From positions 1 through 35,409 of the forward strand of contig CAZKZO010000002.1 in NCBI GenBank assembly GCA_964557325.1: a DNA stretch of 35,409 nucleotides. The letters run 5' to 3'. The notes beneath the pieces were generated by a model, which was not told the DNA's origin, ran no database searches, and saw nothing but the letters and a program-made list of their open reading frames with translations. Below, piece after piece: positions 2,288-33,304 of the stretch (within the stretch, counting starts at the first letter, position 1; the number at the start of each line of letters is the position of its first letter). A program made the position numbers and the translations under genes. The DNA is from Candidatus Woesearchaeota archaeon (GTDB lineage: Archaea; Nanobdellota; Nanobdellia; Pacearchaeales; GW2011-AR1).

Positions 2288-2333
2288 GAAAGTTTTAAAT
2301 ATATTCTTTAGTTTTTTCAATTAGTTACTTACA

Positions 2334-8004: not shown

Positions 8005-8123
8005 ATCATATAAAAATGAAATTACTTAATAAAGGTTTTTGTTAGTTTTAAATATAAATTTTTTCTTTCTTTTGAAAAACTTTTTCAATATAAATTTATA
8101 AACTCTTTTTTCTTTTGGTTTTT

Positions 8124-16101: not shown

Positions 16102-16146
16102 ACTTTCAATTTTATGTTGAAGAAGTGAAGAATTCTAAGGAGTATA
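16098..16146 (+). repeat. 49-bp direct repeat, copy 2 (5' end of the intact gene)
   Basis: Identical to 15395-15443. See copy 1. Confidence 0.95.
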
Positions 16147-16592: not shown

Positions 16593-16596
16593 AGAT

Positions 16597-17232: not shown

Positions 17233-17269
17233 TAATAAGATATATAAAATACTTCTTTAATATTTTACT

Positions 17270-18619: not shown

Positions 18620-18675
18620 GTAAAACACATGTTTTATATAGGTAAAACATATATATGGTTAGAGAAAACATATAA
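18593..18675. repeat. degenerate tandem repeats at and after the elp3 stop
   Basis: atatatatggttaaggaaaacatataa (18593-18619) recurs as atatatatggttagagaaaacatataa (18649-18675). aaaacatata occurs three times between 18609 and 18675, plus a variant aaaacacatg. Confidence 0.6.
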
Positions 18676-18837
18676 ACAAAGTATATATTTTTATCTTTAA
18701 GATTTTTATAATTTTTCTATGTTTTTAGTGATTTTTGCAAATTTTTAGGGAAAAGTATTTAAATTAAAGGGTTTGTATTTTATCGAACTTAAATCCAATC
18801 ACTATTTTTGGATAAAAACACAAGGTTTTTAAGTAAA

Positions 18838-19803
18838 ATGGGAAAGACAAATAATATGCAATATGGAGAGAAAAATAACTTGAAAATAGCAATGCTACAT
18901 CATGATATTGAACCTCCAGAAGAGAAATTTAAAGAAATATTTGAAAAAAAAGAATGTTTAATTGAACTTTTTGATATAAGAAATGTAGTTTTGGAAGAAT
19001 TAAAAAATTATGATATTATAATAAATAGAGTATATAGTAGTGTGGCTTCAAGAGATTATGGTATACTTAAAAAAATACTTGGTTTACTTAAAAGATTAGA
19101 GAGTTCTGGAAAGATTTGTATAAATTCTTATATGGCTTCAAAAGCAGATTATAGTAAATATGAATTATTTAAAAAATTGTCAAAACACAATATTTTGACA
19201 CCTTTTACGTTATTTGTAAATTCTTCTGAAAATATTGAAAAAATTTCTTTTTTAGCTTCAAAAAAAATAGGTTTTCCTTTAGTTATTAAGAGAGATTGTG
19301 GGGGCAAAAGTTATGATATAGATAAGGTTAATACAATCAAGGAATTAAAAGATTCTTTAAAAAATAAATTTAAGGTTGCCAATGAACAAGGATATGAAGG
19401 AGGCTTTATTTTACAAGAATTCATGCAACCCTTAAGGGAACATGATTGTAGGATAGGTGTTGTAGAAGGAAATTTTGTTTTTTCTTATGCCAGAAGTTTT
19501 GTATCTAGAAATTCAAAAGATAAATGGATAGCTTCTACTTCAGGAGGTTCTGTAGAATTTGATTATTCTGCAACTAATGAGGAAAAAAATATGGCAATAA
19601 AAGCTAATTTGGCTTTGAATGCTTCTTTTAGTGAGTCAGATATTATTTTAACAAATAAAGGGCCTTGTATTATTGAAGTTAATATATCTCCTAGTTATTT
19701 TATTGATAGTATTGATGATATTCAAAGAATGGAAATAATTGCAGATAATCTTATAAATAGATATTCAAAATATAAGAAAATTAAATTACCTGTAAAAAAT
19801 TAA
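18838..19803 (+). CDS. ATP-grasp ligase, RimK-like
   Basis: GFPLVIKRDCGGKSYDIDKV, ILQEFMQP, DCRIGVVEGNFVFSYAR and IIEVNISP follow the ATP-grasp (RimK / alpha-L-glutamate ligase) layout. The ORF track starts at TTG 18808; the first ATG is 18838, so the start is uncertain. Confidence 0.65.
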   Translation: MGKTNNMQYGEKNNLKIAMLHHDIEPPEEKFKEIFEKKECLIELFDIRNVVLEELKNYDIIINRVYSSVASRDYGILKKILGLLKRLESSGKICINSYMASKADYSKYELFKKLSKHNILTPFTLFVNSSENIEKISFLASKKIGFPLVIKRDCGGKSYDIDKVNTIKELKDSLKNKFKVANEQGYEGGFILQEFMQPLREHDCRIGVVEGNFVFSYARSFVSRNSKDKWIASTSGGSVEFDYSATNEEKNMAIKANLALNASFSESDIILTNKGPCIIEVNISPSYFIDSIDDIQRMEIIADNLINRYSKYKKIKLPVKN

Positions 19804-19804
19804 A

Positions 19805-20737
19805 ATGGATGTTTTTTTGAGTTTAAGTAGTGAAGCAAGAAGTGTTTATAAAGGCGATTTAATGGAAGAGGGATTAGGTTATATGTCTTCTAGATTTTTA
19901 GCAAGCACATTTGCAAGCAAGGGACATAATTTAAGGGTTGTTCATCCTGGGGATGTTTATGATAGAAATGGAGAAATTTTTTCAAAATCAACATATAGTT
20001 TTAAAAATAATATCTTTAGGCTTGAAGAAAAAGACCTACCTTTATATGGAGATGTTTTTTTTGTGTATGGTTTAGGGGAAGAAACCACTCCTGAAATTTC
20101 AAAAGGATTTTTAGATTTATTGTATCCTTTGGAAAAACAAGTAAAATTAATGTTAAACAGTGCAGAAGCTACTTCTTATGAATTCAAACCTAAACAAAAA
20201 ACTCTGGATTTACCTTGGATCTATGATTTTAATGTTAGTTCAAGAAAAGATTTAGTTGATTTATTAAGAGAAGGGGAAAAAATTATTGCAAAGCCAAATA
20301 TAGGTGCTGCTGGACAAGGTATAACTTCTTTATTAGTGCCTGACGATGTAATTAAAATCCCTGAAGAAAATTTAGGAAATTATCTTTTTGAAAGGTTTGT
20401 TCCTGCAAGTGAAGAAAGAAGATATATTTTTTTAGATAACAGATTTATTTTGGGAAGAAAGACTCTTAAGAAAGGGCCTCCAGGAGAAGAAGAAGTTGTA
20501 GGAATAGATTTAATGGAAGGATATGCTAATGAAATTGAAATAGCAAGAAATGCTTTAGGAAAAACAGGAATGTTTTTTTGTGCTATTGATTTTAGAGGAG
20601 ACAATCTTTTGGAAATTAACGGTTCTGGAACAGGAATAGCTCCACCAACTGTAAAAAATGAAATGGACTCGTATAATTTATCTTCTCCAATTGTCAGGGC
20701 TGTTGAAAGAAAATTTATATTAGAAAATGAAAAATAA
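19805..20737 (+). CDS. ATP-grasp ligase, glutathione-synthetase-like
   Basis: IIAKPNIGAAGQGITSL, FERFVP...ERRYIFLDNRFILGRK and FCAIDFRGDNLLEINGSGTGI resemble the prokaryotic GshB-type ATP-grasp fold. It starts 1 nt after the previous stop. Confidence 0.55.
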   Translation: MDVFLSLSSEARSVYKGDLMEEGLGYMSSRFLASTFASKGHNLRVVHPGDVYDRNGEIFSKSTYSFKNNIFRLEEKDLPLYGDVFFVYGLGEETTPEISKGFLDLLYPLEKQVKLMLNSAEATSYEFKPKQKTLDLPWIYDFNVSSRKDLVDLLREGEKIIAKPNIGAAGQGITSLLVPDDVIKIPEENLGNYLFERFVPASEERRYIFLDNRFILGRKTLKKGPPGEEEVVGIDLMEGYANEIEIARNALGKTGMFFCAIDFRGDNLLEINGSGTGIAPPTVKNEMDSYNLSSPIVRAVERKFILENEK

Positions 20738-21584
20738 AGGAATATTTTTAATAGCTCCTTCAGGAAACATAGATAAAAAATCTTTAGAAATTTCTAAAAA
20801 AAGATCTAAAAAATTAGGTTTTAGTTTGATTAATTATAGAAAAGATATATTAAGTAATCATTTTGATTATGCAGGGGATTATAAAAGAAGGTCTAAAGAA
20901 ATTAATGAAGCATATGACTCAATAAATTATTCTATTATTGTTTCTGTTAAAGGAGGTATGGGTGCTTTACAAATTTTACCTTATTTGAATTATAGGAAAA
21001 TAAAAAAATCTAACAAAATACTAATTGGTTCTAGTGATATAACTATCCTTTTAAATGCAATCAATAAAAAAACAGGTTCTCGTTGTCTTCACGGGCCTAA
21101 TTTAGGAAATAAAGATAAATTTGATAATAAAACCTATAATTCTCTTTTAGATGCAATAAATAAAAAAGATTATGCGATTTCAATCAAAAAGAAAAATATC
21201 CTTGTTAAAGGGACTGCTAAGGGTTCTATTGTTGGGGGAAATCTTGAGTTAGTAGGTAGGTCTTTAGGAACTTCTTTTGAGATTGATACACAAAATAAAA
21301 TACTTTTTTTAGAAGATTATGAAATGAAATCATGGAGGGTTTATGATATATTATGGCAACTTAAATTATCTGGTAAATTTGAAAAAGTAAGAGCTGTTAT
21401 TTTAGGTTATTTTACAGAATGTGGTAAAAATATAGATTCTTATTTAAATGATTTTTTTAAAGATTTTAAATGTCCTGTAATCATGCATCAACCTTTTGGA
21501 CACGAACAACCTAATATTACATTTCCTATTGGAGAAAAATGTATACTTGATACTGAAAAAGGATTTTGGAAGGTTAAATTTTAA
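20727..21584 (+). CDS. S66-family peptidase (LD-carboxypeptidase / MccF-like)
   Basis: The nucleophile motif GSSDITILLNAI, then HGPN, FLEDYEM and FGHEQPNITFPIG match the Ser-Glu-His arrangement of peptidase family S66. It overlaps the upstream ATP-grasp gene by 11 nt. Confidence 0.75.
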   Translation: MKNKGIFLIAPSGNIDKKSLEISKKRSKKLGFSLINYRKDILSNHFDYAGDYKRRSKEINEAYDSINYSIIVSVKGGMGALQILPYLNYRKIKKSNKILIGSSDITILLNAINKKTGSRCLHGPNLGNKDKFDNKTYNSLLDAINKKDYAISIKKKNILVKGTAKGSIVGGNLELVGRSLGTSFEIDTQNKILFLEDYEMKSWRVYDILWQLKLSGKFEKVRAVILGYFTECGKNIDSYLNDFFKDFKCPVIMHQPFGHEQPNITFPIGEKCILDTEKGFWKVKF

Positions 21585-21968
21585 TTAATGCTCTTCTGCA
21601 TGTGCTTTATCTGCTTCTGATTTTGTTTTGTGTATTGTTTTTGGAGCATGTTCAGGGTTTGCGTATATTGAATAAAGTTTAAGTTCTTCTGATTTTGATG
21701 TGTTTATAATTCTATGGGGTTTTCCAGAAGGAACAATAATTACATCATCATCTTTTAAATCAAAGTTTTCTTCTCCAATATATGCTTTAGCTTGTCCAGA
21801 TTCAATTCTTATGAATTGGTCAATGTCTTTATGTGTTTCTTTTGGAATTTCTTCTCCTGGTTTAAGAGACATTAAAACTAATTGTATTTTTTCACCTGTA
21901 AATATAACTTTTCTATAATTTGTGTTCTCAAGTGTGTCTTTTTCAATGTTTGTTTTAAATGCTTTCAT
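21585..21968 (-). CDS. cupin-domain protein
   Basis: 127 aa. ETHKDIDQFIRIESGQAKAYIGEE...VIIVPSGKPHRIINTS fits the two-motif cupin pattern (H..H...E / P.G..H). Confidence 0.7.
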   Translation of the reverse strand: MKAFKTNIEKDTLENTNYRKVIFTGEKIQLVLMSLKPGEEIPKETHKDIDQFIRIESGQAKAYIGEENFDLKDDDVIIVPSGKPHRIINTSKSEELKLYSIYANPEHAPKTIHKTKSEADKAHAEEH

Positions 21969-22027
21969 ATAAAACAGTAATTTTAGTAAGTTTATAAGGT
22001 TTTATAATGATTTTAGAATAAAAACTC

Positions 22028-22214
22028 TTATCTGAATTTTGCATGAATTTTCTTAAGAATTAGATTTTTTGCAATATTTATTCTTTGTTTTAATTTGTTT
22101 TCACTTAAATCAGTTCCAAGATATCTTTTGAATTTATGAACTTTTTCCCTTATTTTTAAGAATGTTCAAGATAGTATTTTGTCTTTTTCCTACTTTTCTT
22201 TTTTCTAGATTCAT
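22028..22214 (-). pseudogene. frameshifted small wHTH-like regulator
   Basis: The minus strand reads MNLEKRKVGKRQNTILNILKNKGKSS* (22134..22214). The +1 frame continues EKVHKFKRYLGTDLSENKLKQRINIAKNLILKKIHAKFR* down to 22028. The frame break lies in the GGGAAAAAG homopolymer region (22141-22149). Confidence 0.45.
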
Positions 22215-22225
22215 AATAATGTATA

Positions 22226-22288
22226 GGTGTCTACATCATTTAAATTTTTTGTTTTGGGTGTCTACATTTTGGGTTTTTTGTAGTCACC
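22226..22288. promoter_or_regulatory. operator-like repeats upstream of the frameshifted wHTH gene
   Basis: ggtgtctacat occurs at 22226-22236 and 22257-22267 (31-bp period). A related inverted copy is at 22278-22288 (ttgtagtcacc = reverse complement of ggtgactacaa). Confidence 0.45.
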
Positions 22289-22395
22289 TTTTTGTGCTAT
22301 ATAAAGTGTGTTTAGAGTGCTTGTTTCGAATAAAATATAATAAAAATAAAAAGAAATATAAATATTTATAAAATAAAAAAAATTATTTAGAAATA

Positions 22396-22692
22396 TCAGA
22401 ATCTTCTGTTATCTCTTCTTGAATTTCTGTTGAAATTCCTTTTGGGTCTGTCTTCTTTTGGTCTTGCTTCATTAACTTTCAATTTTCTTCCTTCAACTTC
22501 TTTTTCATTCAATTCTGAAATTGCTTTTTTTGCAGATTCATCATCTGAAATCACTACAAAGCCAAAACCTTTTGACCTTCCTGAAAACTTATCTTTTATA
22601 AGAGTGGCTTCTTCAACTTCATAATTTGAAAAAAGAGCTTTAAATGCTTCTTCATCCAAGCTAAAAGGTAAATTACCTACATATAACTTCAT
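22396..22692 (-). CDS. RRM-type RNA-binding protein with Arg-rich tail
   Basis: RNP-2 LYVGNL and RNP-1 KGFGFV are at canonical spacing. The C-terminal tail is RPKEDRPKRNFNRNSRRDNRRF. Confidence 0.85.
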   Translation of the reverse strand: MKLYVGNLPFSLDEEAFKALFSNYEVEEATLIKDKFSGRSKGFGFVVISDDESAKKAISELNEKEVEGRKLKVNEARPKEDRPKRNFNRNSRRDNRRF

Positions 22693-22820
22693 TTTTTCCT
22701 CCTTGCATTTCTATCCATACACAAAGTTACAAATTAAGGTTTTTAAATGTATCAGAAAGATATTTTGAATATGTTTGGCTCAAATTAATCTATTTAAAAA
22801 TGATGTTTAAGTTGTATTGG

Positions 22821-23161
22821 TTAGTGGTTTTTCAAGCTGACAATCTTTTTTTTCAAGCCAGGCAAATCTTTTTCAATAATATTCCAAATTCTATCTAAAT
22901 TTACTCCAAAATAAGCATGAATTAACACATCTCTAAATTCTGAAATACTTTTCCAAGGAATATCTGGAAACTTTTTTGTAAATGAATTTGGAAGATTTTT
23001 AACAGCTTCTCCTATGACTTCTAATTTTCTAATTGTGGCATCAATAATATCTTTATTTTCTTTAAATTTAATTTTGGAAAGTTTTTTTTTGATTTTTCAA
23101 TTAAATTTATGTTTTCTAATATATCATCTATAAATAAATTTATGTTTCTTTTAATTTTAAA
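22821..23161 (-). pseudogene. HepT (DUF86) toxin remnant, frameshifted and lacking a canonical start
   Basis: The C-terminal frame reads ...IIDATIRKLEVIGEAVKNLPNSFTKKFPDIPWKSISEFRDVLIHAYFGVNLDRIWNIIEKDLPGLKKKIVSLKNH*, which contains the R-x(4)-H-x-Y HepT motif. The N-terminal part (NINLFIDDILENINLIEKSKK) is in another frame. The break is at the T9 run 23082-23090. There is no ATG/GTG/TTG after the upstream in-frame stop. Confidence 0.6.
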
Positions 23162-23171
23162 TCAGCAAAAT

Positions 23172-23480
23172 TTATCTTGCATTCCATTGTAACTCTTTTT
23201 TATTTTTATATTTCTTAACTAATTCTGGATTCCAGACGTAAATTACATAGCCTTGATTATCATATCCTATTTTTCCTATACTTTCTAAATATTCAACTAT
23301 TACTTGAAATGTTTGCCACATTACTTTTTTAGGAAGATTCTTAAACAAATTTGTTTTTTTGTATTCTCCAGAGTTTTTATCTATAAATCTCTCAACCATT
23401 AAAACAGTTTGGAGTGTTGGGCTTCTCGCTATATTATTTAATTCAGCATAATTTTTTTTAATTGTTATTTTTGATTCCAT
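23172..23480 (-). CDS. hypothetical protein, possibly winged-helix
   Basis: 102-aa ORF (…QTFQVIVEYLESIGKIGYDNQGYVIYVWN…). It has no nucleotidyltransferase (MNT) motif, so it is not the cognate HepT antitoxin. Confidence 0.4.
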   Translation of the reverse strand: MESKITIKKNYAELNNIARSPTLQTVLMVERFIDKNSGEYKKTNLFKNLPKKVMWQTFQVIVEYLESIGKIGYDNQGYVIYVWNPELVKKYKNKKELQWNAR

Positions 23481-23587
23481 TTTATTAATAGTATCAAATG
23501 ATATGATTATATAAATTTTTCTATTTGAGTTATCTAACTATATCAATTAATTATAATTTAGAAGAGCATATGAACCTTGAAAAGAAG

Positions 23588-23607
23588 GATATACGCCCCG
23601 ACCGAAC
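23588..23607. repeat. att copy 1 (distal copy of the tRNA-Glu 3' end)
   Basis: gatatacgccccgaccga (23588-23605) is identical to 32942-32959, which overlaps the tRNA-Glu 3' end. acgccccgaccgaac (23593-23607) is identical to 31962-31976. Confidence 0.85.
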
Positions 23608-23620
23608 CGCCCGATAAATT

Positions 23621-23641
23621 GTGGAATTTAGGTGGGCTTTT
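23621..23641. repeat. sub-terminal inverted repeat, left arm
   Basis: gtggaatttaggtgggctttt matches the reverse complement of 31930-31950 (aaaagcccatctaaactctac) at 18 of 21 positions. It lies 14 bp inside att copy 1; the partner lies 12 bp inside att copy 2. Confidence 0.6.
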
Positions 23642-23682
23642 AGTATAATAATCATTAAAAATAAGTTTCTCAAGTTAAAAGT

Positions 23683-25698
23683 ATGGATATTTCGGGGAAA
23701 GTAAGTCTAAAGAGAATTGCCTATTATTTATCTATTAGTTCAATTTTAGTGATTTTTATACCATTTTTAATAAATCCCTCTTTCAATTTGAACAGCTATA
23801 GTATATTCGGAGATTATTTGGGTTTGATTACTGGATTAGCAGGGGTTATAGTGACTATCACTATTTTCTTAATACAAAATGCAAGCAAAGATTATTCTTC
23901 GCAACTTCTACGGATGACTTTCTTTAAAAATAAATATTTCATGTTTGTTTTAGGATATATCTTTTTAGCATTGATATTCTTCACTCTTGGAGCTACTTTT
24001 GAAATTGGAAATCAAGCCAAGATATTTGCATTTTTTGTTAGTGTGGGTTTGGTCTTTAATTTTGTTTCACTTTTGTTAGTCGCTTCATATTTTATGAATA
24101 TTTTAAATATAATAAAAGAAATTGAAATAGAAACAATACATTATATTTATTCTCGTGCTGAAGCAAAAACCTTACCTTTGATTGGTAAAATAAGTTTGAA
24201 CAAAATTTCAGAATCTAAAATAATAAATCAGATTAAACCAATTTTTGATACCCTCAACAAAAGCATTTCTCTGAATCAAGATGATATTTATACCGAATGT
24301 TTAAATTCATTAGATAAAATAATAAGAACCTATCTAAAACACACTAGTTCTTTTAAATCCCTTGAAGATAAAATATTGCTTGAATTGGCAGATCAATCTT
24401 CATTCATAATTAAGACTATGATTAAATATGAAAATCAAAAATTCATGGATAAATTTTCTTTATTCTTAGGGAATATTGGATCCTATATTTTAGAATACAG
24501 ATATAACATAGGTGGAGTTAACAATCATGCCTTATCAATAAGTAATCTGTTGTTTGAAATTTTTCTCAAGTCTTATAATTTTGATAGAACCTCCGCTCCA
24601 AAGTATTCAATCTCGGGCATATCAAAATTAGTTAAAAAATGTATACAAAAAGAATATTATCAATCTGCCCCAATTTATTATCACGAGTTGAAAAAGATAA
24701 TGGATTTGTGTATAAAAACCCCTTCTTTTTGGTCTGCAAATTTGATTCAGTATGCGTTTAATGAAATTAAAGAGGAGATAAATGAGTGTGTCCTTGCAGT
24801 CCAAAATAAAAAGGGTGTTGAATTACACTTTTTAAGAAGCCTCTTTTTAGATATTTTTGAAACTATCAAGAAATCTAGCCAAAGTTTTTCAGCAACACAT
24901 TATGATATGATTCTAAACTCAATGTTTAATCTAGAATCCGTCTTTGTTAAGATATCTAAAGTTCATCCACAATTACCCGTCTACAAAAAAGTTCCTGATA
25001 GCATTCTAAATCCTCTATTAGACAATTATGTAGATCTTTGTAAGAAAATACTAGAAGAAAATAATATTGATATTAGATTTATGTTTTTCTATTGCTTTCC
25101 CGAATTAATATTCTTAACTAAATATATCCAAAAGGCAGATGATAGGTTTAATGTTAAACATGAAGAACTATTTGCTTCCCTATTAAAAAGATTACATTTT
25201 GAATTTGAAAATGAGAAACAAAGTAATCTTGACAATCATTACTTTTATACTATTGAAGATTATTTCTCCATAATGATTTATTCTAAAGATAAAAATCTTT
25301 GTGAAAAACAGCTTTCTTTATTAGTTAAAAAATACAATGAGATTTTAAAGAGTAAAAAAATATCAGAACGTAATAAAAATAGGATTTATGGGTTGCTTAA
25401 AATTATTGGTGCGTTAATGGAAGGCGAAGATGAATTTAAGTCCTGTCAAGAAAGTATAACTAGAATAATCTCTCCTAACTTTAAAGAATACAAGCAGATT
25501 GGTAAGGCGCTACCTTCTTTTTTTGAACAATATGATTATCCTACCTTTAAACATACTTTTGATGACTGGTTTATTTCTCCACTCTCAATTTGGAATCCTG
25601 TTTGGCAAGATCAAATAAACGCATATTTTGATAAAAAATATAAATTTATCAATTACCATAAGAAACTTAAAAAATTACAAAACTCCAAAAAGAATTAA
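23683..25698 (+). CDS. polytopic membrane protein with large helical cytoplasmic domain, hypothetical
   Basis: 671 aa. About 4-5 N-terminal TM helices (residues ~10-140) are followed by about 500 aa of helix-rich sequence. No NTPase or nuclease motif was recognised. Confidence 0.5.
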   Translation: MDISGKVSLKRIAYYLSISSILVIFIPFLINPSFNLNSYSIFGDYLGLITGLAGVIVTITIFLIQNASKDYSSQLLRMTFFKNKYFMFVLGYIFLALIFFTLGATFEIGNQAKIFAFFVSVGLVFNFVSLLLVASYFMNILNIIKEIEIETIHYIYSRAEAKTLPLIGKISLNKISESKIINQIKPIFDTLNKSISLNQDDIYTECLNSLDKIIRTYLKHTSSFKSLEDKILLELADQSSFIIKTMIKYENQKFMDKFSLFLGNIGSYILEYRYNIGGVNNHALSISNLLFEIFLKSYNFDRTSAPKYSISGISKLVKKCIQKEYYQSAPIYYHELKKIMDLCIKTPSFWSANLIQYAFNEIKEEINECVLAVQNKKGVELHFLRSLFLDIFETIKKSSQSFSATHYDMILNSMFNLESVFVKISKVHPQLPVYKKVPDSILNPLLDNYVDLCKKILEENNIDIRFMFFYCFPELIFLTKYIQKADDRFNVKHEELFASLLKRLHFEFENEKQSNLDNHYFYTIEDYFSIMIYSKDKNLCEKQLSLLVKKYNEILKSKKISERNKNRIYGLLKIIGALMEGEDEFKSCQESITRIISPNFKEYKQIGKALPSFFEQYDYPTFKHTFDDWFISPLSIWNPVWQDQINAYFDKKYKFINYHKKLKKLQNSKKN

Positions 25699-26903
25699 TT
25701 GGGATAGCAATTTCCATCAACACCTAAATAATATCCAGTTGGACAGCTTACACAATCATTATTGTAACAATAAGAACCTTCTTCACAATAGGTTGTAGGA
25801 CTTCCACATGGCTCGTGACAATATCCATCATTACCTAGAATATATCCTTCTTCACAAGAGACACATTCTCCATTAAAACATTGTCCCGTTTCACAATAAG
25901 TTGTAGGGCTTCCACAAGCTTCATGGCATAAATCATCATCTCCTAAAACGTAACCTTTCTGACAACTTAATTCAGATTCATATTCATGACATTCTCCATT
26001 TGTAAAATATGAACCAGAGCTACAATAAATGAAGCTTTGTTCCTTTATAGAATTAAAATCAATTGCTATACTTGTTTGAGTTCCTGAAATCCAAGTATTA
26101 ATCCCAATTAAATTTCCTTGTTCATCAAATAAACCCCCACCACTACTTCCAAAATAAGTGTATGCATCTGATTCTATAGTTCTAAAATTATCTCCAGTTG
26201 ATTGAGAAAGAACATCTTTAATATCTGTGATTCTTCCTTCACTAATAGAAAATTCTACAACATTTTGGGCATAGGAAGGGTAGCCAACAGCAATAACCTT
26301 CTCATTTATTTCAAATTCATCCGTATAATAAGCAAAGTCATAACTTTTTGCATCAGAAGTTTTAATTTTTAATATTGCTAAATCTATATCTGATTCACTA
26401 AAAGAAACTCTATCCACATCATGTAGTTTTCCATCTTGTGTTCTAACTTGAAAACTTTCAGAAATTCTTTGGAAACAATTCATATCATTATATTCACAAT
26501 CAATAACGTGGCGATTAGTATAAATTGTTAATTCATTATCTTCATTTGCAACAATCACGCCCGAACCAGTCTCACCACTTTCAAAATAAGAGCCATCCAC
26601 ATTTTTTATAGTAACATCATATTTAACCCACACAATTGTTTGTTTTATTTCATCTTTTACACTCTCTACGTCATTGGTTTCTGATTCTGTATAATTCTTG
26701 GCTTGGAGATATTCCTCATAACTATTATAATATTTCCCATCATAAAAATAGGTTCCATGGTTTTCGTCATCACTTTCAGTGTTCTCATAATTTGGTGATT
26801 GAAAAATTATGAAAAGAACTATAAAAAATAATACTATTGTAGCACCTTTCCATAAAGTGCTTTTTTTGATTTGAATTTCACTTTTTCTTTTCTTTTTACT
26901 CAT
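25695..26903 (-). CDS. membrane-anchored trypsin-like (S1) serine protease with C-terminal Cys-rich tandem repeats
   Basis: Catalytic triad context: TNRHVIDC (His), DIDLAILKI (Asp), GSSGGGLF (Ser). N-terminal anchor: WKGATIVLFFIVLFIIF. The C-terminus has about 2.5 repeats of C..GY.LG.D..CHE.CGSPTTYCE.G.C.N..CVSC. Confidence 0.8.
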   Translation of the reverse strand: MSKKKRKSEIQIKKSTLWKGATIVLFFIVLFIIFQSPNYENTESDDENHGTYFYDGKYYNSYEEYLQAKNYTESETNDVESVKDEIKQTIVWVKYDVTIKNVDGSYFESGETGSGVIVANEDNELTIYTNRHVIDCEYNDMNCFQRISESFQVRTQDGKLHDVDRVSFSESDIDLAILKIKTSDAKSYDFAYYTDEFEINEKVIAVGYPSYAQNVVEFSISEGRITDIKDVLSQSTGDNFRTIESDAYTYFGSSGGGLFDEQGNLIGINTWISGTQTSIAIDFNSIKEQSFIYCSSGSYFTNGECHEYESELSCQKGYVLGDDDLCHEACGSPTTYCETGQCFNGECVSCEEGYILGNDGYCHEPCGSPTTYCEEGSYCYNNDCVSCPTGYYLGVDGNCYPN

Positions 26904-26953
26904 GATATAATATTATGACATGTCTCTTTTAAGCATTGCTATTTATTTGTATC

Positions 26954-27178
26954 ATGAAGAAGAGGAAGCCATTAGAGATAAAAAAGAAGATTCTAAATGT
27001 TCTGAGAGAAAATAAAGAGCTATCTTTAAGAGAATTAGATATTAAAGTTAATACGGGGTATCGAACAATAAAAGACTAGATAGAAGAATTAGAGTTCTTC
27101 AGGTTGGTTGAAGTAATAAAACATAAAAAGAATCTAAAAACAGGAAGACCTTATACTAGTGTTAGATTGAAACATTAA
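26954..27178 (+). pseudogene. small wHTH regulator with an in-frame TAG
   Basis: Manual translation: MKKRKPLEIKKKILNVLRENKELSLRELDIKVNTGYRTIKD, then TAG at 27077-27079, then IEELEFFRLVEVIKHKKNLKTGRPYTSVRLKH*. The sequence reads as one continuous winged-helix protein across the stop. Confidence 0.5.
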
Positions 27179-27795
27179 ACTCTAAAAATATCGTCTAGTT
27201 CGGGATTCCTATATTGAGTTTTTTTCACAATTGGTTTTGGTCTATCTGATTCATTCATGGTAATCTGTTTCAATGAACTATCCCAATTATGCTTGCAAGA
27301 AGTACATGTAAAATAATCTTTTATAACTCGCACAATTTCAACCCATTTCTTTTTCTTTTTGTCTTTAACTCTATCTTTAACTGTTCCATCTGTAAAAAGG
27401 TAGACTATGGTGTCATAATATTCATGAGGTATTTTTTCTTCTTTGATTGTTTCTCGCCCAACATGTTTTTTTGTAAATATCTTTTTACAATGCGGGCACT
27501 GGTTCTGATATATTAACCCTGTAAGGAAGCCCAGACCTATTGTTATAGCAACTAGAGAGGGAAATTTAGCCCATTCCCAATAAAATCCTGCAAGAGATAA
27601 AATTGCAAAGAAAACTGTTAAAAATAGTCCTACTGCAAAAGCGTTTATTTTAGAGATGTCAAAATGAGAGCTTCTGTTGCCTTTCATTATTGTACTCTTA
27701 CCTTTAATTCTTGAATATAAGAAAACTACACTTCCAGAAATAACTGTTGCTATGAGGCTAGCAATTATGCCTTCAAAAATATTCTGGAAGTTCAT
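27175..27795 (-). CDS. 3-TM membrane protein with cytoplasmic Zn-ribbon
   Basis: 206 aa. It has three hydrophobic helices, then CPHC ... CTSC (two CxxC pairs about 60 aa apart) and a poly-K stretch. Confidence 0.5.
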   Translation of the reverse strand: MNFQNIFEGIIASLIATVISGSVVFLYSRIKGKSTIMKGNRSSHFDISKINAFAVGLFLTVFFAILSLAGFYWEWAKFPSLVAITIGLGFLTGLIYQNQCPHCKKIFTKKHVGRETIKEEKIPHEYYDTIVYLFTDGTVKDRVKDKKKKKWVEIVRVIKDYFTCTSCKHNWDSSLKQITMNESDRPKPIVKKTQYRNPELDDIFRV

Positions 27796-28044
27796 ATATT
27801 CTATAGTTTTGTTGGGTTTTAAATTGTTTTTATTTTGTCAATTTAATTTAATATTTAAAGTCATTTACTAGCTAATAACGTTATTTGACAATGAATGTTA
27901 TTATTTAACAACATTTGAATGCATTTAAGTTGTTTAAATGTTTTAAATAACGTTTCAAATATTCTTTTAAATTGTTCATTTGGAACGTTTGTGTTGTTTT
28001 AAAGGTTCTAAATGTTTGAATTTTCTAAAGATTCTAAATGTCCT

Positions 28045-28458
28045 TCACTTTCCACGTTTTTTAAGTATTTTAAGAAAATAATCAAAATAAGGTAAAGATC
28101 TTTGAACTATTTCAATCCCTCTTTTTACTTGTTCCCAAGCCGTTTTTCTAACCCTATATTTTCCACCTTCTAACCTTTCAAGATACCCTTTTCTTACTAG
28201 CTTATCACAAGCTTTCTTATAATCTGTATAATTTGATCTACCATAAGCCCTTGCAATTTCACGATAGGTCTCAGGTTTGTTATTGTATTTTGAAAAATAA
28301 GCCAAAACAGCCATTTGAGACTTAGTCCATAAAGTGTATTCTTTTACCCAAATACCTCTTTCTTTCCTTACTCCCATAATTCCTTTATCACCAGATTTTT
28401 TAATTTTCCTTTCAATTTTCTCCGCTTCTTCTCCAATTAATTCTTTTGAATTGCTCAT
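28045..28458 (-). CDS. winged-helix DNA-binding protein (element regulator)
   Basis: 137 aa. YREIARAYGRSNYTDYKKACDKLVRKGYLERLEGGKYRV is a typical wHTH recognition helix plus wing. Confidence 0.6.
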   Translation of the reverse strand: MSNSKELIGEEAEKIERKIKKSGDKGIMGVRKERGIWVKEYTLWTKSQMAVLAYFSKYNNKPETYREIARAYGRSNYTDYKKACDKLVRKGYLERLEGGKYRVRKTAWEQVKRGIEIVQRSLPYFDYFLKILKKRGK

Positions 28459-28612
28459 TTTGTGCGATTATAATATTTTACTCGCATTCTCGCTTATATA
28501 GTTTTTTGATTTTTACTTTTTATGAAAACATTAGAAGAAAAGATTGAGAGAATCTTGTTTATATTGGAAAATCTGGAATTGAGAATTTATAGAAAAATCT
28601 TGGATAAGGAGA

Positions 28613-28792
28613 ATGAAGAAAAACTCACATCTACACATATTGATAGAAACTAGCCTTTTGAATAAACTTAAAGTTGAAGCTCAGGAGAAGAATATATCTT
28701 TAGGACAGCTTTGCAGATCCAAATTAGGAAAACAGCCACAATTGGATAGAATTGAAGGGAAGTTGGATAGGGTTTTGAAAAAACAAAACTAA
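28613..28792 (+). CDS. ribbon-helix-helix (CopG-like) small protein
   Basis: 59-aa ORF below the ORF-track cutoff, found by manual translation: MKKNSHLHILIETSLLNKLKVEAQEKNISLGQLCRSKLGKQPQLDRIEGKLDRVLKKQN. A beta-strand followed by two helices fits the RHH pattern. Its stop overlaps the STAS-like gene stop by 4 nt (ctaa). Confidence 0.45.
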   Translation: MKKNSHLHILIETSLLNKLKVEAQEKNISLGQLCRSKLGKQPQLDRIEGKLDRVLKKQN

Positions 28793-29103
28793 GCAATAAC
28801 CTTTCTTTGTCTATTAACTTTAAATGGAACTTCTAGACCAACGTTTTCATATTGGATATAAACATTTTTGAACATGTTATAAACTTCATTTGACATATTA
28901 GCTTCTACAATTTTCTTTGTAGATAATTTTTTCTGTTTCAAATACTCATCTGCACAAGATCTGGAAATAAACTCCACTTTATCAAAATCCAAGATAATCT
29001 CTTTATTCTTTAAAGAGTTGAGTTTCCTAAAAAAATCAGAAATGGAACTCCTAGTGAAGATATTATTGCCAAATTCGTGTGTCAACAATATCTTGTTATC
29101 CAT
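28789..29103 (-). CDS. STAS-like single-domain protein (DUF4325-like)
   Basis: 104 aa. FTRSSISDFFRKLNSLKNKEIILDFDKVEFISRSCADEYL matches the DUF4325/STAS-like consensus as I recall it (R..g..l...l....kv.LDF.gV..is.SF.dE). It starts 34 bp after the GHKL gene. Confidence 0.6.
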   Translation of the reverse strand: MDNKILLTHEFGNNIFTRSSISDFFRKLNSLKNKEIILDFDKVEFISRSCADEYLKQKKLSTKKIVEANMSNEVYNMFKNVYIQYENVGLEVPFKVNRQRKVIA

Positions 29104-29137
29104 ATTAGTAATAGAAGGATAATCTATTTAAAACTTA

Positions 29138-29998
29138 CTATTCCACAAAATTATAGATGTTTAACTTATTTTTAGGAGTCTTTAATCTGAGATAAACAAA
29201 GGTTCCTTTAACCGAATTTCCCTCTAGATCATAAAGAATCGGTTCTTTTTCAGATCTAATAATTAGTATACCTCTTCTTGATATGATGTAAAGTTCTCCT
29301 TTTAGCCCTTCTATAGACAACTTTTTGCAAGTTCTTAATCCAAATCCCCTCATTTCCTCATTACTTTTAGTTGTAACTTCACCCCAAACAGCCTTTTTTA
29401 TTGCTTCTTGGTCTCCATTAAAGGAAATATTGTGTTTTTCAAATAATTTTGGGATAGATACCCCATTATCAAAAACCGCAATATCTACCATTTTCTTTGT
29501 AGGATAATATTGTGCCATTAGAGAAGCACATTCAAATTCAGAATGGTCATCTATATTATCTGAAAGCTCTCCCAAGATATATTTTATACTCTCTCCAAAC
29601 TGATAAGGCAATTTTTCTTCAATTTTGGTTATAAGTTCGTTTACTTGTCTGTTAACTTGATTTCTATCTTCAGTGTCCTTTTTGAAATGTTTTATTGAAA
29701 CATAAGAACCTCCATCCTCTTCATTTCCTAAAGGGAATCCAATCTTTTTCATATGCTCACGAACTTTTTCGTTTTGTGGTTCTTTATACATGACACTTTG
29801 TGCACCATGATCTAAAAATTCCCTTATTTTATTACTTATTAATATCATAGAACATGGAATAAACCATTGAATATCTGATAGATCAATAGAAATTTTTTGG
29901 GTTTGATTAAATTCTTTTTCCATATCATTCATAACTTTCACAGCTACAGTAATATGTTCTAGAACGTTATCTCCGCTTGGGAACTCTATTTTAATCAT
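29138..29998 (-). CDS. GHKL-superfamily ATPase (SpoIIAB/RsbW-like) with N-terminal STAS-like region
   Basis: N-box ILGELSDNIDDHSEF (E-x3-N-x3-H), G1-like VFDNGVSIP, G2 RGFGLRT, terminal strand GTFVYLRL. The N-terminal ~90 aa (ISIDLSDIQWFIPCSMILISNKIREFLDHG) look like a second STAS-type module. It starts 43 bp after the integrase stop. Confidence 0.65.
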   Translation of the reverse strand: MIKIEFPSGDNVLEHITVAVKVMNDMEKEFNQTQKISIDLSDIQWFIPCSMILISNKIREFLDHGAQSVMYKEPQNEKVREHMKKIGFPLGNEEDGGSYVSIKHFKKDTEDRNQVNRQVNELITKIEEKLPYQFGESIKYILGELSDNIDDHSEFECASLMAQYYPTKKMVDIAVFDNGVSIPKLFEKHNISFNGDQEAIKKAVWGEVTTKSNEEMRGFGLRTCKKLSIEGLKGELYIISRRGILIIRSEKEPILYDLEGNSVKGTFVYLRLKTPKNKLNIYNFVE

Positions 29999-30041
29999 AC
30001 GTTATTTTACAAATAAGACTTTTTATTTATTTCTAAACCAT

Positions 30042-31199
30042 TCACAATCTATCCAACAACTTATCAATCTTAATTACTGCTTCCATAAACTTGTCAACTT
30101 TTTCTTCTATTGCAATTATTCTGTCTTGGAGTATTTCTCTTTCTGTATTGCTTTCTTTTAGGTTCCTTTCTATTTCTGTTTTTTCTTCAGAGAGAATTAA
30201 ATCATCTTGAGAAATAGTATCCTTCATCCCTAACATTTCAGAATAATAATGAATCTTGTCCGATTTCTTCCATCCAAAACGATATTTTAATGCTGATTCT
30301 GATTTATATCTTGGAAGCCAATAACAACAAGAACAATGTCTAAAATCATACATTGTTAATTTAGAGTAAAATTCTCCAGCAAGACTTTTTTCTTCACCCA
30401 AAACTCTTTTTGCTAATCTTTGTAAATAAACATTAACACTTGAAGGCTTTATTGGAAATAGGTAATTATCATCTTTTAACCCATTCTCATTAACATAATC
30501 TTTAATGTATTGTGTACAAAGTAAAAGTTTAATTTTCCTTCCAAAAGTCTTGCTTACCTCGTCTCTTATAACTAATTCCTTAAAACCACTATAAAAATCA
30601 GAAACCTTGATGTTAACTAGTTCTGTAGGGGATCTTATTCCAGAATCATAAAGTAACATAATTAAGACCTTGTATTTCCATTGAGCATTATTACAAAGCT
30701 TTCTTACTTGTTCTTCCGTTAGATAAACCCAACGGGGTTTTTCAGAGCGGGAATCTAAGTCATTAGTTATATCTTGAATTTCAATACCTTCTTTTTTACT
30801 AATTTTTTGATACCAATGCCAAAATGCTTTGAATATCTTAACAAAGTAAGCTGTAGATTGATATTTCTTACCATCATTTCTTGTTATTTCTCCTTTTCTC
30901 ATTTTTGAAAAGAATAGAACTAGTTGATTCTCTGTAATGTCTGTTATACAATTTAAATTGTAAACTTCTTTAAATCTTCTAGCGAAGAACCCTAATTTTT
31001 CTCTTAAAGTATTAAGCCTTATGTAACTTCTCCCACCCTTAACGCTCTTTAAAGATACATTTAAACCATGCTCCATATCATTTAGGTATTGAAGAATTAT
31101 ATCTGAATTTCTCTTAGAAATGTTTGGAATTCCTTTAAATGAAACTTGGGCTTTCCATTCTTTGTATCTTTTTTCGTGGTTATACGGATCAATTCTCAT
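30042..31199 (-). CDS. tyrosine recombinase / integrase
   Basis: 385 aa. YDSGIRSPTELVNIKVSDF (catalytic Arg I), SKTFGRKIKL (Lys), MYDFRHCSCCYW (Arg II / His), FGWKKSDKIHYYSE (Trp/His and Tyr nucleophile). A coiled-coil C-terminal tail follows. It lies about 760 bp from att copy 2. Confidence 0.8.
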   Translation of the reverse strand: MRIDPYNHEKRYKEWKAQVSFKGIPNISKRNSDIILQYLNDMEHGLNVSLKSVKGGRSYIRLNTLREKLGFFARRFKEVYNLNCITDITENQLVLFFSKMRKGEITRNDGKKYQSTAYFVKIFKAFWHWYQKISKKEGIEIQDITNDLDSRSEKPRWVYLTEEQVRKLCNNAQWKYKVLIMLLYDSGIRSPTELVNIKVSDFYSGFKELVIRDEVSKTFGRKIKLLLCTQYIKDYVNENGLKDDNYLFPIKPSSVNVYLQRLAKRVLGEEKSLAGEFYSKLTMYDFRHCSCCYWLPRYKSESALKYRFGWKKSDKIHYYSEMLGMKDTISQDDLILSEEKTEIERNLKESNTEREILQDRIIAIEEKVDKFMEAVIKIDKLLDRL

Positions 31200-31267
31200 C
31201 TAAGAGATAGTCAGAATTACTTTTTAATCAACCGCAACAATTTCGCAACATGTTGTGGAGTTGAACA

Positions 31268-31714
31268 TCATTTCTTTTTGAAAGAATTATATAAAAAGAG
31301 AGCAATCTTTTTAATTAATACAAACGCTATCAAAAACATAAATATGTATAAAATTACTATAACAATTTGAGAGAGTGTTGTTAGAATTTCGTTTGAATTT
31401 GGACTATCTTTTATCGTTACCCATGCGAAAATCGTTGTGGCTAAAGCTAAAATCCATGTGGCATTTCTTAAACTATCGGTTGCATGAACTAATTTTTTTT
31501 GTATATGGAAATTTTGTACAATCATGGCTTTTTCTAAGTCTTTTTCTTGGAAATTAAATACTGGGGATTGAAAGATAGCCATTATATCTTTAGAATACTC
31601 TTTTAGTGATTTTTTGAAATCTTCTCTTTCTATATACTCTTCAGAACTTTTTTCTTGATTATTTTTCCACAAATTTTGAATTTTCTTAATTAGTTTCATT
31701 TTAATCAGATTCAT
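31268..31714 (-). CDS. hypothetical protein with two C-terminal TM helices
   Basis: 148 aa. A charged helical N-terminal half is followed by WILALATTIFAWVTI and IVIVILYIFMFLIAFVLI. It overlaps the upstream 69-aa ORF by 14 nt. Confidence 0.45.
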   Translation of the reverse strand: MNLIKMKLIKKIQNLWKNNQEKSSEEYIEREDFKKSLKEYSKDIMAIFQSPVFNFQEKDLEKAMIVQNFHIQKKLVHATDSLRNATWILALATTIFAWVTIKDSPNSNEILTTLSQIVIVILYIFMFLIAFVLIKKIALFLYNSFKKK

Positions 31715-31910
31715 TCAGAAGTTTATATATTCTATAACCCCAATAAGTTACTATAAGAATCGGAGCTAGTTTAAATGCAATAAATCCAACTATGCATCCA
31801 AACAGACTGATTTCACATAATGTTTCATAAAATACTTCTCTAAGTATTGAAAGTATTGGAAATAAGATTATTGTGATTATTAGTTTTTTCATAAAATCCC
31901 AAAGAATCAA
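31701..31910 (-). CDS. small 2-TM membrane protein
   Basis: 69 aa. It has two hydrophobic helices (LIITIILFPILSIL; GCIVGFIAFKLAPILIVTYW). It is the first gene inside att copy 2. Confidence 0.4.
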   Translation of the reverse strand: MILWDFMKKLIITIILFPILSILREVFYETLCEISLFGCIVGFIAFKLAPILIVTYWGYRIYKLLNESD

Positions 31911-31929
31911 TATTTTATAAATATCGTGT

Positions 31930-31950
31930 AAAAGCCCATCTAAACTCTAC
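31930..31950. repeat. sub-terminal inverted repeat, right arm
   Basis: aaaagcccatctaaactctac. See the left arm at 23621-23641. Confidence 0.6.
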
Positions 31951-31961
31951 AAAGAATATCA

Positions 31962-31976
31962 ACGCCCCGACCGAAC
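31962..31976. repeat. att copy 2 (internal)
   Basis: acgccccgaccgaac is identical to 23593-23607. The core cgccccgaccga is shared with the tRNA-Glu 3' end. Confidence 0.8.
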
Positions 31977-31992
31977 GCAAGACAAAAGTGTC

Positions 31993-32889
31993 TCAGTTAG
32001 GGTTTTTTAAATACCTACCATATTCAGCTAAGTATCTTCTAAAAAACCATTGAATAAATATATTGTCGTCTTGGTTTACCTGTGATCTTTCTAAGGCATT
32101 ATAATAACTACTTCTCTTTGTGTAATGAATATCCAACATCGGAAACTTGAATTTTTTTAAGACAAAATTCATCATTAATCTTGAAATTCTACCATTGCCA
32201 TCTGTGAAAGGGTGAATAGTTACAAATTTTAGATGAACTAAAGCTGCTAATTCAACAGGGTACATTTTATTTTTTTCTCTATTATACCAGTCAAAAAATT
32301 CTTTCAAAAGGGTTTCTAACTCCAAATGCATTGGGGGTTTAAACTTTGATTGAGAAATTGCGATATCGTGATTTCTTGTTTTGCCTGCTATGTCTTTTGC
32401 TGTTTCCTTCATTAGGTCCTTATGCCATTTTAATACAATTTGCAAATTCAAATCTTTTTCATAATCAAGCATTTCAAAGAAGACTTCTTTATGTGCCTCA
32501 GCCTCTTTAACATCTCTTAAAGGCTTTGATGCAGGAGTTATTCCATCTTCCAATAATTTAGCAGTATCTTTTAATGTAAGAGTGCTTCCTTCAATTCTTT
32601 GAGTATTGTAAGTAAATTGAACTGCAAAAGTATCTTTTTTCTTCTTTCTTGCAGAAACAGGCATTGCCTTATACTCTTTATCAAAATTCTTCTGAATCTT
32701 ATTTATGTTTCCAAAGAACTTTTCTTTGTAAAATTCCTGCATAAACTCTTTCTTCTTTTCTCTTATATCTTTTGGGATATTCTCGCCTAAGTAAAATTGT
32801 TTCTTCTTTACAGATTTGCCTTCTCGGTAGCTATGACCAAGATAAAAATATTTTCTGTTGCCTTTTTGCATTTCTTTAATTTCTACCAT
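31993..32889 (-). CDS. fic: Fic-family protein (AMPylase type) with N-terminal inhibitory motif
   Basis: Canonical Fic motif HPFTDGNGRISR (HxFx[DE]GNGRxxR). The upstream TQRIEG fits the [ST]xxxE[GN] auto-inhibitory helix motif. Confidence 0.9.
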   Translation of the reverse strand: MVEIKEMQKGNRKYFYLGHSYREGKSVKKKQFYLGENIPKDIREKKKEFMQEFYKEKFFGNINKIQKNFDKEYKAMPVSARKKKKDTFAVQFTYNTQRIEGSTLTLKDTAKLLEDGITPASKPLRDVKEAEAHKEVFFEMLDYEKDLNLQIVLKWHKDLMKETAKDIAGKTRNHDIAISQSKFKPPMHLELETLLKEFFDWYNREKNKMYPVELAALVHLKFVTIHPFTDGNGRISRLMMNFVLKKFKFPMLDIHYTKRSSYYNALERSQVNQDDNIFIQWFFRRYLAEYGRYLKNPN

Positions 32890-32941
32890 AAGAATTCTTA
32901 TACCTACATCTTTATAAATTTATTGTTTTTGTTAAAATGTA

Positions 32942-32959
32942 GATATACGCCCCGACCGA
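32942..32959. repeat. att copy 3 (overlaps the 3' end of tRNA-Glu)
   Basis: gatatacgccccgaccga is identical to 23588-23605. Positions 32948-32959 are the last 12 nt of the tRNA. Confidence 0.85.
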
Positions 32960-33020
32960 GATTCGAACTCGGGTCACGGCCTTGAAAGGGCCGCATTCTT
33001 GGCCACTGAACTATCGGGGC
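32948..33020 (-). tRNA. tRNA-Glu(UUC)
   Basis: Hand-folded 73-nt cloverleaf: GCCCCGA-TA-GTTC-AGTGGCCAA-GAAT-G-CGGCC-CTTTCAA-GGCCG-TGAC-CCGAG-TTCGAAT-CTCGG-TCGGGGC-G. The anticodon TTC is at + strand 32984-32986. No CCA is encoded. Confidence 0.85.
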
Positions 33021-33037
33021 ATAATTAAGTTAGTAAA

Positions 33038-33050
33038 CTTATAAATAAAA
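33038..33050 (-). promoter_or_regulatory. TATA box of tRNA-Glu
   Basis: The minus strand reads ttttatttataag. The TATA element spans about -19 to -30 relative to the tRNA 5' end, the spacing expected for an archaeal promoter. Confidence 0.5.
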
Positions 33051-33178
33051 TACAGAATTTAGTTTTTAAAAGTAACTGTAGAATATTTTTGTATATGTTA
33101 ATGATTTCTTTTTAAAAATAAGTATGAGATGTTTTTTGATGTGATTTGGTATAAAATTAAATTATCTCTTTTTACAAA

Positions 33179-33304
33179 TGAGCCTGCACGGATTTGAACC
33201 GTGGACCCCTGCCTCTCTTAGATTTCTCAATCTTTGAGAGAAATAACCTTTACAGATTATACTCATATAAGAGCAGTGCTCTGACCAGACTGAGCTACAG
33301 GCTC
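33179..33304 (-). tRNA. tRNA-Ile(UAU) with a 51-nt intron at the canonical 37/38 position
   Basis: The hand-folded exons give a 75-nt cloverleaf: GAGCCTG-TA-GCTC-AGTCTGGTCA-GAGC-A-CTGCT-CTTATA/A-GGCAG-GGGTC-CACGG-TTCAAAT-CCGTG-CAGGCTC-A. The intron is 33215-33265. CUUA of the anticodon loop can pair with UAAG near the intron 3' end, giving a bulge-helix-bulge-like fold. The anticodon TAT is at + strand 33267-33269. Confidence 0.75.

Follow-up and report, generated by a model that had tools for sequence, protein, structure and literature searches.

Tandem arrays of attachment (att) sites, in which an integrase-less, att-flanked unit lies beside an integrase-bearing one, are familiar from the accretion of integrative and conjugative elements (ICE) and cis-mobilizable elements (CIME) in bacteria such as Streptococcus thermophilus. 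Among the archaeal elements that target tRNA genes, those of the pNOB8 type keep their integrase gene whole, unlike those of the SSV type (PMC8371274), in which, according to a passage of PMC7253208, attP lies inside the integrase gene and the gene is split upon integration. The first of these sources reviewed archaeal tyrosine recombinases in 2021; it describes integration in tandem at a single locus as well as loss of the integrase gene after integration, and the term DPANN has no occurrence in it. In the haloarchaeal pleolipovirus SNJ2 the 14-bp core is the 3'-distal part of a tRNA, recombination has been shown experimentally, and integrases of this type form, together with small auxiliary genes and an att site, a module of diverse elements that target different tRNAs (PMC5861418). 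Here we describe a locus at the tRNA-Glu(UUC) gene in a 35,409-nt stretch of DNA from a Candidatus Woesearchaeota archaeon (contig CAZKZO010000002.1 of assembly GCA_964557325.1; the whole stretch is called the window below). With a probability of roughly 80%, site-specific integrative elements have stacked up here as an array at the 3' end of this tRNA gene, in a DPANN archaeon of the Pacearchaeota/Nanoarchaeota type. As we read the sequence, the array would run, from the tRNA outward, through a ~1-kb segment with a Fic gene, a complete integrative element of ~8.37 kb (element E, 23608-31961, between core copies 1 and 2) and a decayed third unit.

The integration target, an intact tRNA-Glu(UUC) gene on the minus strand (32947-33021; ARAGORN, and Rfam RF00005 at 66.2 bits), ends in core copy 3 (O3, 32942-32959), the tRNA-adjacent junction. 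Sequence comparison places the tRNA-side junction of E at core copy 2 (O2, 31962-31976) and its far junction at core copy 1 (O1, 23588-23607), such that E lies between direct copies of the 3' end of an intact tRNA gene, at a core-to-core spacing of 8,369 bp. The string CGCCCCGACCGA occurs exactly three times in the window, always on the plus strand (at 23594, 31963 and 32948), and in none of 100 dinucleotide-preserving shuffles, even with one mismatch permitted. Copies 1 and 3 have 18 nt in common (GATATACGCCCCGACCGA, 23588-23605 and 32942-32959), copies 1 and 2 have 15 nt (ACGCCCCGACCGAAC, 23593-23607 and 31962-31976), and copies 2 and 3 have 13 nt. Three direct copies of the tRNA-Glu(UUC) end, with these 18-bp and 15-bp identities and with little prospect of arising by chance, are what the original prediction, made from the letters of the window alone, had described, and each of these statements stands. 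So does the reality of the repeats, since the structure is reproduced by a second assembler and by contigs of other samples and is not an assembly artefact. A 17,090-nt Logan contig from the second assembler matches window positions 16117-33206 at 100% identity. In other samples of the same study (runs X2, X3 and X4, represented by assembled contigs that are short at the junctions), the left junction of E is crossed in X3 (23513-24005) and the right junction in X2 (31700-31960 and 31931-32543) and X4 (31639-31998).

E encodes on the minus strand a 385-aa integrase (30042-31199), as had been proposed for the 8.4-kb segment between copies 1 and 2, with a Pfam PF00589 score of 29.3 bits (cutoff 27.1) and a match to the phrog_1 integrase family at 3.5e-17. 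The open reading frame (ORF) is intact and as long as those of its homologues, with 760 nt between it and the nearest core. Across 30 homologues R189, R287, H288, W310, H317 and Y318/Y319 are invariant. The HxxR box has Tyr284 in place of its histidine, and in an alignment with Pyrococcus XerA (4a8e) the Arg-I and HxxRH boxes fall on the motifs GIRSPTEL and YDFRH. AlphaFold (pLDDT 76.5) models the protein as an all-helical N-terminal domain followed by a catalytic domain, with a C-terminal helix of 54 residues; the modelled fold matches XerA, Cre, Tn1549 Int and residues 75-356 of lambda Int, and a lambda-type arm-binding domain is absent from it. By its Pfam score, its residues and its predicted fold the protein is a tyrosine recombinase with catalytic-type residues. 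It is remote from solved and curated proteins (XerA 4a8e, E 9e-4; NCBIfam XerA_Arch, 52.9 bits where the cutoff is 220). An identity as the XerA chromosome-dimer resolvase was considered and rejected, given the sub-cutoff XerA_Arch score, ~100 aa of additional length, the linkage to tRNA genes and the variable cargo.

A search for homologues returned 2,374 proteins at E < 1e-5, the best 120 of which are all at least 60% identical to the integrase of E, and 297 loci of the family were located in DPANN species-representative genomes. We kept 80 of these loci for analysis, most of which bear the label Pacearchaeota, Woesearchaeota or Nanoarchaeota. The integrase gene of 46 of the 80 is preceded, at no more than 3 kb, by the end of a tRNA gene with the same orientation, mostly at 77-160 nt; tRNA-Asp is the most frequent neighbour, and Glu, Gly, Ser, Gln and Tyr tRNAs also occur. 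The other neighbouring genes are highly variable across the family and include GmrSD, TIR, helicases and toxin-antitoxin pairs. Only three genes of E recur among the relatives: the integrase gene in all loci, a 59-aa gene in 23 loci, and a winged-helix gene in the five closest. The first companion, the most conserved one (tblastn matches at 47-86% identity), lies on the plus strand (28613-28792) and probably encodes a ribbon-helix-helix (RHH), CopG-like protein, to judge from a weak Pfam CopG_antitoxin match (0.012). Divergent from it on the minus strand (28045-28458) is the gene for a 137-aa winged-helix DNA-binding protein (PADLOC AbiEi HTH, 8.7e-07), which has 15 database homologues, related loci with homologues being L003, L005, L006, L007 and L016, and a predicted model (pLDDT 83) with MarR-type structural matches. 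The remainder of E, its cargo, recurs in relatives only as isolated matches.

The second hallmark of E is a sub-terminal inverted repeat (I14), whose arms at 23619-23642 and 31929-31952 sit 11 and 9 nt inside the direct repeats. Such a repeat had been predicted, and it is real, although it measures 24 nt with 21/24 positions (88%) complementary, slightly longer than the 21 bp (18/21) claimed for it. We built a weight matrix solely from the arms of other loci and scored it over the whole 35-kb window, where it finds only two strong sites, the proximal arm of E (31929-31954, 37.6 bits, 8 nt from the core, CTTTGTAGAGTTTAGATGGGCTTT in the tRNA sense) and its inverted distal arm (23617-23642, 25.9 bits, 13 nt from the core); the next best site scores 12.8 bits. 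In the direction of the tRNA the layout therefore reads core, 8-9 nt, CTTTGTAGAGTTTAGATGGGCTTT, the body of E, inverted arm, 13 nt, core. Two related loci with integrases 73-81% identical to that of E share it: in L005 the end of tRNA-Glu is followed by a core at 19 and an arm at 41, with the inverted arm at 9418 and a core at 9432, and in L007, where tRNA-Glu occupies 8603-8676, the inverted arm is at 17331 and the core at 17345. Among loci from unrelated metagenomes, the proximal half-site is also present in L003, L010 (twice), L091, L095 and L096; by these comparisons the sub-terminal inverted repeat is a feature of the family. We rejected the idea that the arms are copies co-varying with the core, as the core of L007 differs and its arms are the same. 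We likewise rejected a crossover at the inner end of the arms, as only the core is duplicated in L005 and L007; in both loci the far core is followed by no arm-like sequence. As a separate observation on the target, an intron-bearing tRNA-Ile(UAU) gene of 126 nt (33179-33304, minus strand), missed by default ARAGORN and found by Rfam and an ARAGORN intron search, lies 157 nt upstream of tRNA-Glu, and L007, L034 and L062 likewise have Ile(UAU) followed by Glu(UUC).

Rejoining the ends of E yields a predicted attP whose 13-nt core has an inverted 24-nt arm on either side, the arms being ~35 nt apart, which is too far for the two to form one Cre-like core site. We hypothesize that E would circularize to carry this attP (inverted arm, 13 nt, the 13-nt core identical to the tRNA, 8 nt, arm), and that the Cre/XerA-like integrase would exchange strands within the core TCGGTCGGGGCGT. 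Integration would keep the tRNA gene intact and duplicate the core at both ends, and the 24-nt arms, which end just inside the ends of E, would be the halves of the split attP. Because the integrase model contains no lambda-type arm-binding domain, the arms are more likely to serve as accessory sites, occupied by the RHH and winged-helix proteins or else by additional integrase subunits, which might build the complex and set its direction. Each integration would regenerate a usable core on which later arrivals could stack in tandem, while older units would lose their integrase gene and decay to att-flanked remnants.

Between cores 2 and 3 lies an integrase-less, att-flanked segment of ~965 bp (31977-32941; 985 bp core to core), whose gene, on the minus strand (31993-32889), encodes a 298-aa Fic-domain protein (Pfam Fic 9.7e-22; PADLOC PDC-S04 1e-31 and SoFic 1e-29). 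The translation carries an intact HPFTDGNGRISR motif, which conforms to the Fic/DOC AMP-transferase signature HxFx(D/E)GNGRxxR, as well as an N-terminal TxxxEG inhibitory motif. The segment is assigned a putative origin as an element because two core copies flank it. By eye, the sequence preceding its distal core resembles that preceding cores in L005 and L095. Cores in these two loci that are not preceded by an arm (L005 11354-11422; L095 4280-4348) share the upstream motif ACGCCCTGTC(G/A)T(G/A)(A/G)TT(T)C, and a motif of the ACGCCCTGTC type may mark a second type of element end.

On the other side of E, the left flank holds a degenerate arm of the proximal type outside copy 1 (23561-23584; CTTTTCAAGGTTCATATGCTCTTC in the tRNA sense), which scores only 1.27 bits with the matrix but sits at the expected offset, among the top 0.034% of window positions (corrected p ~0.003). 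Next to it is a 102-aa gene on the minus strand (23172-23480) with tblastn homologues inside the element loci L031 (78%) and L095 (55%), in both of which a ParE-like ORF follows, and then a HepT (DUF86) fragment without a start codon (22821-23096, minus strand; Pfam HepT-like 2.1e-19, over positions 31-117 of the 120-position profile), a toxin pseudogene. Since the left flank contains this degenerate arm, an element-associated gene and a truncated HepT, the array is taken to comprise at least three units. No further core copy, and hence none marking the outer end of the third unit, was found elsewhere in the whole window with up to three mismatches. The original prediction, which had placed a Fic gene and no integrase in the ~1-kb segment between copies 2 and 3 (as Pfam bears out) and had suggested two successive integrations or a decayed tandem element, is supported by all the evidence and is here refined to at least three units, the three direct cores separating an integrase-bearing unit from integrase-less ones. 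The relatives strengthen it: L005 contains three exact cores (at 19, 9432 and 11411), a copy with a single mismatch at 11956 and another with two mismatches at 10054, with toxin-antitoxin genes between core copies; L010 has two nearly identical copies of core plus arm 526 nt apart; and in both loci the extra cores bound short integrase-less segments.

A natural form of the locus that lacks E was detected in X2. There a 152-nt contig with a depth of 3.61 runs through window positions 23440-23563 and then directly into 31933-31960, placing the left breakpoint at 23563-23564 (23563 joined to 31933), and it merges into a contig that crosses copy 2 into the Fic gene. This form is missing exactly 8,369 bp, the spacing of copies 1 and 2, and retains the Fic gene. 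Both forms coexist in X2, in which contigs of the body of E and the normal right junction are also present. In nature, then, E is dispensable and its presence varies. The E-less form is not the canonical excision product, because its joint lies outside the repeat and the proximal arm of E abuts the flank, unlike the outcome of a core crossover, which would leave the degenerate arm beside the flank. Taking the X2 allele for the true empty site, which would follow from a crossover at the inner end of the arms, fails for the reason given above for L005 and L007. A second variant junction (22801/23727) was rejected as the product of short chance matches and disappeared when the region was analysed alone.

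Several observations weigh against an array of integrase-driven elements. The joint in X2 is displaced from the 15-bp repeat by 30 nt towards the flank and is thus no demonstration of integrase-mediated excision, and the E-less form depends on one 152-nt contig of low depth. Neither the circular attP junction nor the canonical empty site, both of which had been put forward as checks on the original prediction, was found in the contigs of four runs, a negative limited by the fact that assembled contigs drop rare forms. Of the tRNA-adjacent majority of related loci, only about six carry a copy of the tRNA 3' end downstream within 10 kb; the islands without such a repeat are either longer than 10 kb or have lost their far ends. 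The arms of the Fic segment are not significant (proximal -30.7 bits, distal -16.6 bits, corrected p 0.37), and no replication, transfer/conjugation or virion genes were recognised in E. Finally, the GC content of E (28.9%, against 28.2% in the backbone and 27-30% in the window overall) and its codon usage (r 0.975, within the backbone range) are indistinguishable from those of the backbone. Its tetranucleotide pattern, by contrast, does depart from that of the backbone, with a correlation of 0.725 compared with 0.89-0.94 for backbone segments of equal size.

The most serious alternative, which we nevertheless regard as unlikely, is that E is a fixed fossil and that the E-less form arose by an integrase-independent deletion between the two imperfect 46-nt direct repeats of core plus arm, for example by copy-choice slippage with the 15-nt core as its anchor. 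A joint displaced 30 nt from the core and yet in register is the pattern of a template switch and not of a core crossover. Copy-choice slippage would produce such a joint if a nascent strand containing core 2 and its arm re-paired on core 1 and continued into the flank from a 2-nt TT microhomology. The missing canonical junctions in the four runs and the host-like GC content and codon usage of E are also in keeping with a fossil. Set against this are the intact genes of E, among them an integrase with all invariant residues, the good preservation of both arms, and the combination of strong conservation of the integrase family with highly variable gene contexts, an argument that the family is still mobile; E itself may be active today.

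It is also conceivable, but in our judgment improbable, that the whole 9.4 kb from copy 3 to copy 1 moves as one composite unit by means of the 18-nt repeat, copy 2 being a relic and the Fic gene cargo. The longest identity is indeed that between copies 1 and 3, no arm of the Fic segment itself is significant, and fused units do exist, as the two integrases within one arm pair in L006 (described below) indicate. The complete proximal arm directly after copy 2 is, however, spaced as are the tRNA-adjacent arms of relatives, which implies that it belongs to a full site of E's own, and the E-less natural form has lost only the 8,369 bp and still carries Fic. A composite unit is moreover compatible with the stacked array that we favour, since any pair of cores could recombine.

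The remaining genes of E are intact, like its integrase gene, and several encode membrane proteins without annotation, which might be taken as structural proteins too divergent to recognise, E then being a small provirus. Between the att site and the integrase gene lie, on the minus strand, a 69-aa ORF (31701-31910), for which a search of the related loci found a single homologue, in L012, and a gene for a 148-aa protein with a hydrophobic C-terminal part (31268-31714), conserved in L005 and L008. Beyond the integrase gene, and also on the minus strand, are genes for a 286-aa HATPase_c-type ATP-binding protein (29138-29998; Pfam 8.7e-07, phrog_3364 6.8e-39), for which no homologue was found among related loci, and a 104-aa STAS-like DUF4325 protein (28789-29103; Pfam 5e-4, below the gathering score; phrog_20761 2e-10). 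Considered as a pair, these two cargo genes (28789-29998) resemble a kinase and partner of the SpoIIAB/SpoIIAA type. Past the winged-helix gene follow a 206-aa membrane protein with a CxxC zinc ribbon (27175-27795, minus strand), with one homologue, in L006, and a cargo gene for a trypsin-like serine protease with a Cys-rich C-terminal tandem repeat (25695-26903, minus strand; Pfam Trypsin_2 1.2e-23, with PADLOC matches to protease domains). The protease repeat (D1, 25782-25965) is a tandem 108-nt repeat, 76 nt of it aligned at 74%, with modules of the form CxxGYxLGxDGxCHEPCGSPTTYC. The last cargo gene, on the plus strand (23683-25698), encodes a 671-aa membrane protein that is weakly DUF2254-like (Pfam 4.3e-06, below cutoff) and has no homologue among the related loci.

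That such genes make E a provirus is very improbable. In favour of a provirus, some cargo matches PHROG families of unknown function (phrog_3364 and phrog_20761). Searches of Pfam, PHROGs and NCBIfam, however, gave no capsid, packaging or replication match. The candidate structural proteins are not conserved in related elements, where only the integrase, the 59-aa protein and the winged-helix protein are, and in IMG/VR the arm motif was not found, nor was any relative of the integrase. By its gene kinds the cargo (the Fic gene, the HATPase_c and STAS-like pair, the protease, and the toxin-antitoxin genes) looks like a set of defence or conflict genes, a conjecture for which PADLOC returned single-domain matches only. 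A stretch of 250 nt of non-coding DNA downstream of the winged-helix gene (27796-28044) contains several words resembling CATTTAGAA; all three exact copies of CATTTAGAA in the window lie inside E, two of them 26 nt apart. A role for CATTTAGAA as an iteron was rejected, the word not being enriched over shuffles. As for the repeats being chance matches or assembly artefacts, we found nothing in favour of this and consider it refuted by the shuffles (0/100), the identical 17-kb contig of the second assembler, the junction-crossing contigs of other samples and the same layout in other metagenomes.

A broader reading can be offered tentatively, at less than even odds: that E belongs to a DPANN-wide family of minimal mobile islands, with a backbone of integrase, RHH and winged-helix genes and an att site formed by a 13-nt tRNA core within 24-nt inverted repeats. 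Such islands might shuttle defence and toxin cargo among ultra-small archaea and accumulate as arrays at tRNA genes, and the non-canonical E-less form could mean that there is a second route of loss or exchange at the arms. In the literature searched, including PMC8371274, we found no description of the integrase family. The identity of the integrase to its best 120 homologues (60-81%) may be compared with that of the host Trp-tRNA synthetase (11008-12138) to its own relatives (67-76%), which are labelled Nanoarchaeota, Pacearchaeota and, in one case, Aenigmatarchaeota, the best identity being 76%; on these values the integrase appears to be about as conserved across DPANN archaea as a host synthetase. 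The labels of the synthetase relatives and the intron in the neighbouring tRNA-Ile gene point to a Pacearchaeota-like DPANN host, and the sample came from a microbial mat. No terminal overlaps indicative of circular contigs were found among the short related loci, and exact-protein look-ups of the Fic, 102-aa and RRM proteins returned nothing beyond the single 17-kb contig. One relative is unusual in carrying two integrase genes: L006 (1-13005) has them at 1851-3005 and 7495-8652, within one pair of arms at 17-44 and 10003-10030, and looks like a fused double element.

Few mobile elements of DPANN archaea of the Pacearchaeota or Woesearchaeota type have been delimited to their exact ends, and for E the ends, the att layout and a three-gene backbone are now defined. 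The integrase family, found in hundreds of DPANN species genomes, offers a practical marker for islands and their cargo, and the compact pair of integrase and att site is a candidate genetic tool for organisms that have none.

The closest described counterparts are the pNOB8-type elements, with which E shares a tyrosine integrase, a core from the tRNA 3' end duplicated at both ends, a restored tRNA and a whole integrase gene. It differs from them in its remote integrase, its DPANN host, the conserved 24-nt inverted arms that bracket the core, and the lack of a recognised replication or virion module. By layout E can be likened to SNJ2, in that the integrase, 59-aa and winged-helix genes of its family travel together with the arms and relatives occupy Asp, Glu, Gly, Ser and Gln tRNAs; unlike SNJ2, E is devoid of viral genes and is known from sequence alone. 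With the SSV1-type elements of Sulfolobus viruses and Thermococcales plasmids it has in common a tyrosine recombinase of an archaeal element that targets tRNA genes, but the defining feature of the SSV type is lacking, the integrase gene of E being unsplit with its nearest core 760 nt away. The array resembles the accretion of ICE and CIME in its tandem att sites, and differs from it in the domain of life, in the integrase family and in having no conjugation module here. Islands that target tRNA genes, their accretion in tandem, and archaeal integration that leaves the integrase gene intact are all well known, and in kind the arrangement is a textbook one; the particular integrase and att family found here appears, from the sequences compared, to be widespread in DPANN archaea.

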